Shown: one piece after another, positions 22,802-23,779 of the stretch
Position numbering within the stretch: the stretch's first letter is position 1
How the letters are laid out: every line of letters starts with the position of its first letter
IMG/VR virus record: IMGVR_UViG_2565956713_000001
Direction: 5' to 3' (one strand)
Origin: a virus
Taxonomy: Duplodnaviria > Heunggongvirae > Uroviricota > Caudoviricetes
DNA: 64,000 bases
Translations under genes and position numbers: made by a program
Notes under the pieces: generated by a model
Database searches by the model: none
Told to the model about the DNA's origin: nothing
Seen by the model: only the letters and a program-made list of their open reading frames with translations

Positions 22802-22969
22802 CGAAAGTCATCCTTTATGCTGTATTTTTGAATTTAATTAAAAATGCTGCATAAAATAATAATGTATGCGTAGATGCTTGTACATAGCATTCTCTGCATG
22901 TTTGGTTCATTTTGCACGATTGAGAGTTACAAGAAAGGCACAAAAAAGCCCCGTTCAGGGGCATCAGTG

Positions 22970-23779
22970 TTATTTGCTAAGAGCAGCGAATAATCGTTCG
23001 AAATCGATAGTATCTATAGCACGCGTAAGCGCCGGAAGTTCAGCCTCAAAGTACCCGTGTCGATCGTAAAAGAAGGGACCGAAGAGCGAGGCATGTTGGA
23101 TTCTACTTCGCCCCAGCCCGGACACACAGTTAAGCCCATTACCGGCTAAAAGGCTAAAAAACTTCTCTGGATTATCGTGGTAAAGCTGGGAATCAATGGT
23201 GGCGGTTAACTCTTCCATAGGGAAGCACACCCGCCCTGTATCCCAGGGATATTTAGTCCGAAGCATAAACATTGCTTTCAGCAATTCACATTGAGCGCGG
23301 ATCGCGTCCGGTTCATAGCCAGATATGGAGACATAAGCCACGTCCCTCATTCCTGCGTCATCTTTGAAAGTCACGATAGAAGTAACATCCAGCTCTTTTT
23401 CGAAAGAGCAAGCAGCATCTACTGGACGCTGAAGTAAATCATTCGACTTAATGCGCTCGAGAATCCCTCCCCACATATCATTTAGATATTCGATATGAGC
23501 CAAAACCTTATCAAGACACTCTCGTGTAAACCATTCAGTATGCCCGCCACCGACGCTTTTCTCCCACGGCGCATTCCAGGGGAAAAAGGTTGCGTGTAAA
23601 GCCCGCTCAAGATTAACCATTGCCAAACGTGTACCACGATAGACCCGTGAAAGCGCAAAATCGGGACTCACTTGTAGCCCTTTAAACCGTGCCAATGGAC
23701 CACATGAAATGCCGATTTTAAAAGTATCTCCGTTCTCTGGCACCAGAACGTAGAGGTAGTGTTGTTTCTCTTCTTGCAT
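22970..23779 (-). CDS. T5orf172 / GIY-YIG-like domain protein
   Basis: 269 aa; N-terminus YLYVLVPENGDTFKIGISCGPLARF fits the T5orf172 (GIY-YIG superfamily) pattern; followed by a hairpin plus T-run terminator (~22925-22955). Confidence 0.45.
   Translation of the reverse strand: MQEEKQHYLYVLVPENGDTFKIGISCGPLARFKGLQVSPDFALSRVYRGTRLAMVNLERALHATFFPWNAPWEKSVGGGHTEWFTRECLDKVLAHIEYLNDMWGGILERIKSNDLLQRPVDAACSFEKELDVTSIVTFKDDAGMRDVAYVSISGYEPDAIRAQCELLKAMFMLRTKYPWDTGRVCFPMEELTATIDSQLYHDNPEKFFSLLAGNGLNCVSGLGRSRIQHASLFGPFFYDRHGYFEAELPALTRAIDTIDFERLFAALSK

Follow-up and report, generated by a model that had tools for sequence, protein, structure and literature searches.

A predicted T5orf172-type nuclease gene at the edge of the exchangeable replicon cassette of P1-like phage-plasmids

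The replicon of RCS47/SJ46-type ("p0111") P1-like phage-plasmids carries, next to the partition operon, a gene (ORF269) that is predicted to encode a DNA-cutting enzyme with its conserved motif residues intact. ORF269 is a real and usually intact gene that is weakly constrained and fast-evolving, and its C-terminal domain evolves fastest. It lies at the inner edge of a replicon cassette that is exchanged as a whole, and diverged relatives lie at the same slot in other P1-like lineages. These features are consistent with a selfish endonuclease, a reading that we favour tentatively.

P1-like phage-plasmids occur widely in E. coli and Salmonella, where they carry genes for ESBL and other resistances. 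They fall into two replicon types, IncY and p0111, which serve for typing. Public records already annotate the gene studied here, and one paper refers to it as an unknown gene. New here are the prediction of a winged-helix domain, a slot that four lineages with three RepA types have in common, the breakpoints of the cassette, and the evidence for weak constraint.

The exchangeable replicon cassette

The window (W below) is the whole stretch of 64,000 nucleotides that was analysed. Its positions 20500-25100 are 98.8-99.1% identical to phages RCS47, SJ46, JL22 and phi456, and equally to hundreds of E. coli and Salmonella plasmids (~95 kb). Within the same interval, true P1 (NC_005856) matches only parB-parA-Ppar, at 99.4% identity. 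Based on blastn and the junction sequences, P1 identity ends at window position 22903 (P1 position 61315), just upstream of the -35 box of Ppar, and pairwise alignment finds zero mismatches to P1 over positions 22397-22901, an identical flank of ~500 bp. High identity to P1 returns near 25290, the end of upfA. In between, ~2.4 kb of the window (22904-25285) stands in place of the oriR-repA-incA region of P1 (~1.6 kb). The earlier note had read the gene as an insertion into the canonical P1 module; instead, the whole oriR-repA-iteron region is a different Rep_3 replicon, the p0111 type known from P1-like phage-plasmids, the RepA of which is 42% identical to P1 RepA, and the nuclease gene forms the parA-proximal end of this alternative cassette. 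The features of the region are listed below by window position.

20587-21588, minus strand: parB
21605-22801, minus strand: parA
22856-22903, minus strand: par promoter and operator, the first P1-identical DNA beyond the breakpoint 22903/22904 (P1 Ppar annotation, promoter scan, junction sequences)
22904-25285, no strand: replicon cassette, comprising ori, repA, iterons, nuclease gene and terminator (blastn breakpoints against P1)
22938-22962, minus strand: intrinsic terminator-like hairpin and T-run, closing the cassette (hairpin scan)
22970-23779, minus strand: nuclease gene ORF269, 269 aa plus stop, ATG start (ORF list; full-length match to PHROG 2876)
22970-23464, minus strand: C-terminal domain of ORF269, residues 106-269, predicted winged helix
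23465-23779, minus strand: N-terminal T5orf172-type GIY-YIG nuclease domain of ORF269, residues 1-105
23810-24072, no strand: downstream iteron array of incA-like layout, two iterons one way and four inverted (repeat families D1 and D6, and sequence)
24072-24956, minus strand: repA, Rep_3-family initiator of the "p0111" type (Pfam Rep3_C, Rep3_N)
25038-25139, no strand: five origin iterons at 21-bp spacing (repeat families D1-D3)
25140-25285, no strand: GATC-rich, DnaA-box origin segment, homologous to the same part of P1 oriR (pairwise alignment and P1 annotation)
25291-25683, minus strand: upfA

The six downstream iterons (TCGCnnATAGTCAAC) lie between the repA stop (24072) and position 23810. 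They had been described as incA-like, which holds for their layout; they are not the incA iterons of P1. An extra copy of the iteron (TCGCTTATAGTCAAC) is found within the repA coding sequence at 24339-24355 and is kept in the 84%-identical replicon of lineage L003 (7610-7630); it may be an internal RepA binding site. The GATC/DnaA-box half of the origin (window 25163-25290) is ~75% identical to P1 oriR (L001 7405-7530), and the iterons and RepA differ. Because this half of the origin is common to both, the IncY and p0111 replicons are diverged homologues rather than unrelated modules. P1-like phage-plasmids swap the whole cassette by recombination in conserved flanks, which are upfA/ori on one side and Ppar on the other.

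ORF269 and its expression

ORF269 is placed between the six RepA iterons and the par promoter. The description of a 269-aa gene with its own terminator between the iterons and parA was correct, with the ORF at 22970-23779 on the minus strand and the hairpin at 22948-22962; the start coordinate of 22925 given earlier takes in the terminator and its tail. The hairpin, GCCCCTGAACGGGGC then TTTTTTGTGC at 22962-22948, lies 8 nt 3' of the ORF269 stop, and analogous hairpins are found 3' of the nuclease genes of lineages L006 and L003. The full-length match, PHROG 2876, carries the label function unknown. The gene is named "GIY-YIG nuclease family protein" in RefSeq, in RCS47 and ~390 plasmids, and public records also use the name "T5orf172 domain-containing protein". 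In the record of phage phi456 (OR339795.1; hits H6 and H132) it is labelled "terminase small subunit", which is almost certainly a mis-annotation.

In the window, the ATG of ORF269 lies ~35 nt 3' of the last iteron. The other three lineages that carry a relative of the gene have the same iteron layout, and there the nuclease ATG lies 21-26 nt 3' of the last inverted iteron. A promoter scan of the interval from the repA stop to the ORF269 ATG detected no consensus sigma-70 site, and the interval has no terminator-like hairpin. Since promoter and terminator are absent upstream and a terminator is present downstream, we infer that ORF269 is transcribed either together with repA or from a weak promoter overlapped by the iterons. 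Expression of the gene would probably be low, and tied either to repA or to the occupancy of the iterons, because the start codon follows the last iteron by only 21-35 nt and no consensus promoter or terminator intervenes.

A nuclease domain followed by a predicted winged helix

The assignment of the N-terminus to the T5orf172 branch of the GIY-YIG superfamily is borne out by profile searches. The T5orf172 profile of Pfam, PF10544, matches residues 8-85 of ORF269 at 26.9 bits (E = 6.9e-6), above its gathering score of 20, and PHROG 681 ("endonuclease") matches with 7e-9. Among 1.84 billion representatives, ~65 further proteins align to residues 4-117 (E < 1e-3), with 33-43% identity. In an alignment of 34 sequences, Y10, K21, G23, S44, E58, H62, E82, W83 and F84 are invariant, and R31 and D40 are nearly so. 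The motif residues of T5orf172/GIY-YIG proteins are all present, namely the Y-x-Y strand, K-I-G, the Arg, and the Glu of the TEWF motif. From their position in the alignment, R31 and E82 would be the counterparts of the catalytic Arg and Glu of GIY-YIG enzymes. The E180A substitution in Odn provides an experimental precedent for a catalytic Glu in a T5orf172 nuclease (PMC8263062). The N-domain has the GIY-YIG alpha/beta fold, with a fold match to SLX1.

The rest of the protein had been described as free of recognizable motifs. This stands as far as sequence families are concerned: the C-terminal ~165 aa have no NCBIfam or PDB-sequence profile match, and the C-terminal domains of all four lineages have no Pfam match. 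It does not stand for the fold, which is predicted to be a winged helix. The C-domain is likely a winged helix, probably serving as a DNA-binding or specificity domain. Its best structural match in BFVD is a COG5527 plasmid replication initiator, and the match is weak (E 0.038, TM 0.37). In a profile-profile comparison of the C-domain with an alignment of five RepA proteins, hhalign gave a probability of 0.2, that is, no detectable similarity. Because of this negative result, the Rep-like appearance of the domain is kept as a lead only, and recent chimerism of the C-domain with RepA, as in Odn, was rejected. A CapR-like Zn-finger DNA-binding domain was also rejected, on the grounds that the six Cys of ORF269 (26, 88, 124, 163, 184 and 217) form no CxxC motif and that there is no Pfam match.

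Relatives of ORF269 occupy the same slot

Full-length relatives were found in three other lineages only, all of them P1-like elements.

P0004, lineage L003: 44% identity to ORF269
P0010, L004/L005 (Salmonella enterica): 27% identity to ORF269
P0011, lineage L006: 29% identity to ORF269

In each lineage the gene lies between the downstream iterons of repA and parA, and the four lineages with a nuclease at this slot have three different RepA types. The gene, which the earlier note had called cargo, is not a one-off: relatives of 27-44% identity take this position in a further three lineages, of which one has a P1-type (IncY) RepA. A profile search of 5.8 billion proteins returned the same four lineages only, and scans of IMG/VR and of species-representative genomes gave no new diversity. 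With P0010, the IncY-linked variant, as the query, complete plasmids and phages yielded matches only to the N-domains of the p0111-type gene; the IncY elements of these collections, and those in PLSDB, therefore have no detectable relative of the nuclease gene.

Two pairs of elements show how the slot relates to cassette exchange. In the pair W/P1, gp23, parA and parB are 100% identical, RepA is p0111 type in W and IncY type in P1, the nuclease is present in W only, and the breakpoint lies 66 bp beyond the ORF269 stop. In the pair L003/L004, gp23, parA and parB are 98-100% identical, the flanks are 96-98.6% identical, and the nucleases are 29% identical. The L003 RepA is of the p0111 type (84% identical to that of W), the L004 RepA is of the IncY type (83% identical to that of P1), and the cassette breakpoints lie 84 and 63 bp beyond the nuclease stop. 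As these two pairs show, the whole cassette has been exchanged at least two times, and the nuclease gene is always at the inner edge of the parA-side breakpoint. Variable presence at the edge of the exchanged tract is seen for W/P1 and L003/L004, a comparison that is confounded in that the whole replicon differs too. The third RepA type is that of L006, whose nuclease shares 40% identity with the L004 nuclease. The nucleases of W and L003 share 44% identity (33% in the C-domain), against 84% for RepA and essentially the same iterons.

Several other arrangements were observed. P0005, a 197-aa protein of an E. coli plasmid, is a chimera of 78 unrelated N-terminal residues and nuclease residues 105-223, and AP027761.1 and AP027538.1 (hits H46 and H97; plasmids of 183 and 231 kb) carry only the 3' part of the nuclease gene; all three look like rearrangements with a breakpoint within the gene. 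In L058 (4431-6813), a remote N-domain homologue, P0021, directly follows an HTH_36 (rep-like) gene with overlapping stop and start; a second T5orf172/MUG113 gene lies before the HTH_36 gene, with a ParA-like gene in the vicinity. This locus appears to be another case of T5orf172 genes adjoining a putative replication module.

Dispensability, linkage and decay

In P1, ~190 bp of non-coding DNA separate Ppar from incA iteron 1, and there is no gene in this interval. A tblastn search of the P1 Ppar-incA spacer with the four nucleases found no remnant, so a recent loss of the gene from P1 by simple deletion receives no support. ORF269 is accordingly not a core maintenance gene of P1, in keeping with the earlier note, which had treated the gene as an addition rather than as a part of P1 itself. 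A replicon with the same iteron layout and a RepA 85% identical to that of the window occurs without the nuclease gene in CP042620.1 (L054, record positions 84462-93609). This E. coli phage-plasmid of 93.7 kb does not have the gene order of P1 at the locus; its repA is at L054 4063-4947 on the minus strand, and the place of the nuclease gene and parA is taken by a "phage tail protein" gene. Because CP042620.1 has it, the p0111-type replicon is not limited to P1-like backbones.

Judging from the sequenced elements, ORF269 is dispensable for replication and partition, because P1 and CP042620.1 lack it and because inactivated alleles persist in complete plasmids, including SJ46. In PLSDB its linkage to the replicon is nevertheless near-complete, with repA and the iterons in 398 records and the full nuclease gene in 391, as the proposal that the gene is inherited with the replicon would have it.

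Selection on the gene is weak compared with its neighbours. For the nuclease, dN/dS pooled across the common clade (47 loci) is 0.30, against 0.02 for repA, 0.00 for parA and 0.05 for parB. Among 45 full-length copies, 38 are intact and seven carry a premature stop, of which there are three distinct kinds: W68* (L047), S112* (L031, L032 and L034-L036) and Q228* (L027). The last is the IMG/VR copy of SJ46, the type phage of the lineage. One additional copy (L050 4295-6057) is split by an IS200/IS605-family element with TnpA-like and TnpB-like ORFs and also lacks 229 bp of the nuclease gene (window 23257-23485). In all, ~17% of alleles, about one in six, are inactivated. A 229-member protein cluster that begins at M102 of the nuclease points to further N-terminally disrupted alleles.

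Comparison with known systems

The replicon resembles the oriR-repA-incA-parABS module of P1 (NC_005856) in its five origin iterons at 21 bp, Rep_3 initiator, control iteron array and par operon. The two differ in RepA and iteron sequence, and in that a nuclease gene and terminator occupy the window where P1 has only the non-coding spacer.

Homing-type nucleases with a similar build are known from T4-type phages. I-TevI and the Seg proteins have an N-terminal GIY-YIG domain of ~100 aa, a linker, and a C-terminal DNA-binding domain, and the T4 seg genes are free-standing between conserved genes and co-convert flanking markers. ORF269 shares the order of an N-terminal GIY-YIG domain followed by a C-terminal domain, but it belongs to the T5orf172 branch and its predicted binding domain is unrelated.

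Free-standing T5orf172 homing endonuclease genes (HEGs) are known from phages such as ICP1 and T5-like phages. They are reported to adjoin essential genes, to lie at genetic-exchange boundaries, and to encode modular DNA-binding domains at the end of the protein opposite to the nuclease domain (Barth et al. 2023, PMC10448857). ORF269 has the same layout, in which a T5orf172 domain and a separate variable domain occupy opposite ends. It is likewise free-standing in an intergenic slot beside essential genes and at the edge of a recombination tract between near-identical genomes, and it diverges fast and decays frequently. It differs in its C-domain, predicted to be winged-helix-like where theirs is a CapR, DUF723 or DUF4397 Zn finger, and in its host, a plasmid prophage in which the slot lies inside the plasmid replicon.

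Odn (ICP1 Gp88; Barth et al. 2021, PMC8263062) offers a further parallel, as it too combines a T5orf172 nuclease with a DNA-binding domain (predicted in ORF269) and is tied to modular, swappable iteron replicons. The binding domain of Odn is N-terminal and 42% identical to PLE RepA_N, whereas in ORF269 the domain order is reversed and there is no detectable sequence similarity to any of the five RepA proteins, only weak structural matches to Rep initiator winged-helix domains. Moreover, Odn is encoded by the attacker of the replicon, and ORF269 lies inside the replicon.

Possible roles of ORF269

The reading that we prefer, while holding its chance to be somewhat short of even, is that ORF269 is a selfish homing-type or inter-element competition endonuclease. 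In the proposed mechanism, the nuclease would be guided by its winged-helix domain to a sequence in related elements whose allele at this locus is a different one. The target would probably lie inside the non-homologous replicon region, because the shared flanks of W and P1 are identical for ~500 bp. If the genome with the nuclease served as template for repair of the break, the entire non-homologous cassette would be co-converted, which would explain why the breakpoints lie 63-84 bp beyond the gene. Several lines of evidence argue for this reading: the T5orf172/GIY-YIG domain (Pfam, PHROG, motifs and SLX1 fold match) with a predicted winged-helix-like domain at the opposite terminus; a location at the boundary of exchange in both of the independent backbone pairs; the same slot in four lineages with three RepA types; the fast divergence, weak constraint and repeated inactivation of a gene that is not needed for replication; and the precedent of ICP1 Odn, a T5orf172 nuclease aimed at a replicon (PMC8263062). 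Weak purifying selection with recurrent degeneration, as for HEGs, is observed directly (dN/dS 0.30 versus 0.00-0.05; three nonsense alleles and one IS insertion among 47 loci). Position, on the other hand, is weak evidence, since any gene between two recombination hot spots would be co-inherited and would end up near a breakpoint. The case is also weakened in that both the L003 and the L004 allele carry a nuclease, which is not a simple present/absent polymorphism, and in that most T5orf172 HEGs have Zn-finger domains (PMC10448857), which ORF269 lacks. Nor is there a sign of a sweep over the nuclease-less IncY type, because IncY is about as common as p0111, with 31 versus 24 of 55 elements in one survey (PMC9603915).

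A nuclease carried as cargo could instead serve in anti-phage or anti-plasmid defence. Its targets would be foreign DNA that enters the cell, such as modified or otherwise marked DNA read by the winged helix; both host and plasmid would benefit, and its place in the cassette would be hitch-hiking. One remote homologue does lie in a defence-like neighbourhood. Other remote homologues are found in the early regions of phages and next to relaxase or rep-like genes of plasmids, and the full-length relatives occur only at the slot in P1-like replicons, not in defence islands. No PADLOC model matches ORF269 even at E <= 10, and the protein has no membrane anchor, DUF4041 domain or partner gene. We regard a defence role, although it is the main rival reading, as unlikely. 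A SNIPE-like architecture (membrane anchor, DUF4041 and C-terminal GIY-YIG) was rejected, as there is no DUF4041 match and the nuclease domain is N-terminal.

The proximity to the iterons raises the thought of a domesticated, nuclease-derived DNA-binding regulator of the replicon or of par, which would bind the iterons or Ppar or resolve handcuffed plasmid pairs. Such a role would be analogous to that of the repressor CapR, one of the known domesticated T5orf172-related proteins (PMC10448857). In all four lineages the last iteron is 21-35 nt away from the ATG, the type of the gene follows that of RepA in W and L003, and the C-domain has weak structural echoes of Rep initiator winged-helix domains, although hhalign against RepA finds nothing. 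A regulator would hardly be expected to keep the conserved GIY-YIG motif residues, or to differ so much in its C-domain (33% identity) between W and L003, whose iterons are essentially the same. Such a gene is absent from P1 and CP042620.1, which replicate nonetheless, and a dN/dS of 0.30 with ~17% of alleles inactivated contrasts with the near-zero values for repA and parA. This makes a regulator improbable. The same relaxed constraint, with its several independent inactivating lesions, would also fit a decaying relic of an old insertion that has no present function and is passively carried. However, dN/dS is still well below 1, 38 of the 45 full-length copies are intact, and the ORF and its nuclease motifs survive in four lineages at 27-44% identity, where a neutral relic would not last; a relic is thus very improbable.

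Returning to the selfish endonuclease, a more specific form of it can be envisaged, to which we give very little credence: that the nuclease is a "replicon-homing" weapon. Its Rep-like winged helix would read the iterons or origin of a rival, or iterons without their cognate RepA. Its expression would be gated by how far RepA occupies the iteron array that ends 21-35 nt ahead of the start codon, and it would fire on entry into a cell with a competing P1-like plasmid and cut the rival, leading to its elimination or to replicon conversion.

Implications

A T5orf172 gene at the edge of the p0111 cassette, with diverged versions at the slot in rarer lineages, is a testable candidate for a driver or a police of replicon exchange and competition. 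Should ORF269 prove to serve defence, it would represent a small system of a single gene that PADLOC-DB v2.0.0 does not contain. If it is merely selfish, the rule that nuclease genes lie at genetic-exchange boundaries would extend from lytic phages to plasmid prophages. If the "replicon-homing" weapon were true, the IncY/p0111 dimorphism would be a product of nuclease-driven conflict, a plasmid counterpart of ICP1 Odn versus PLE.
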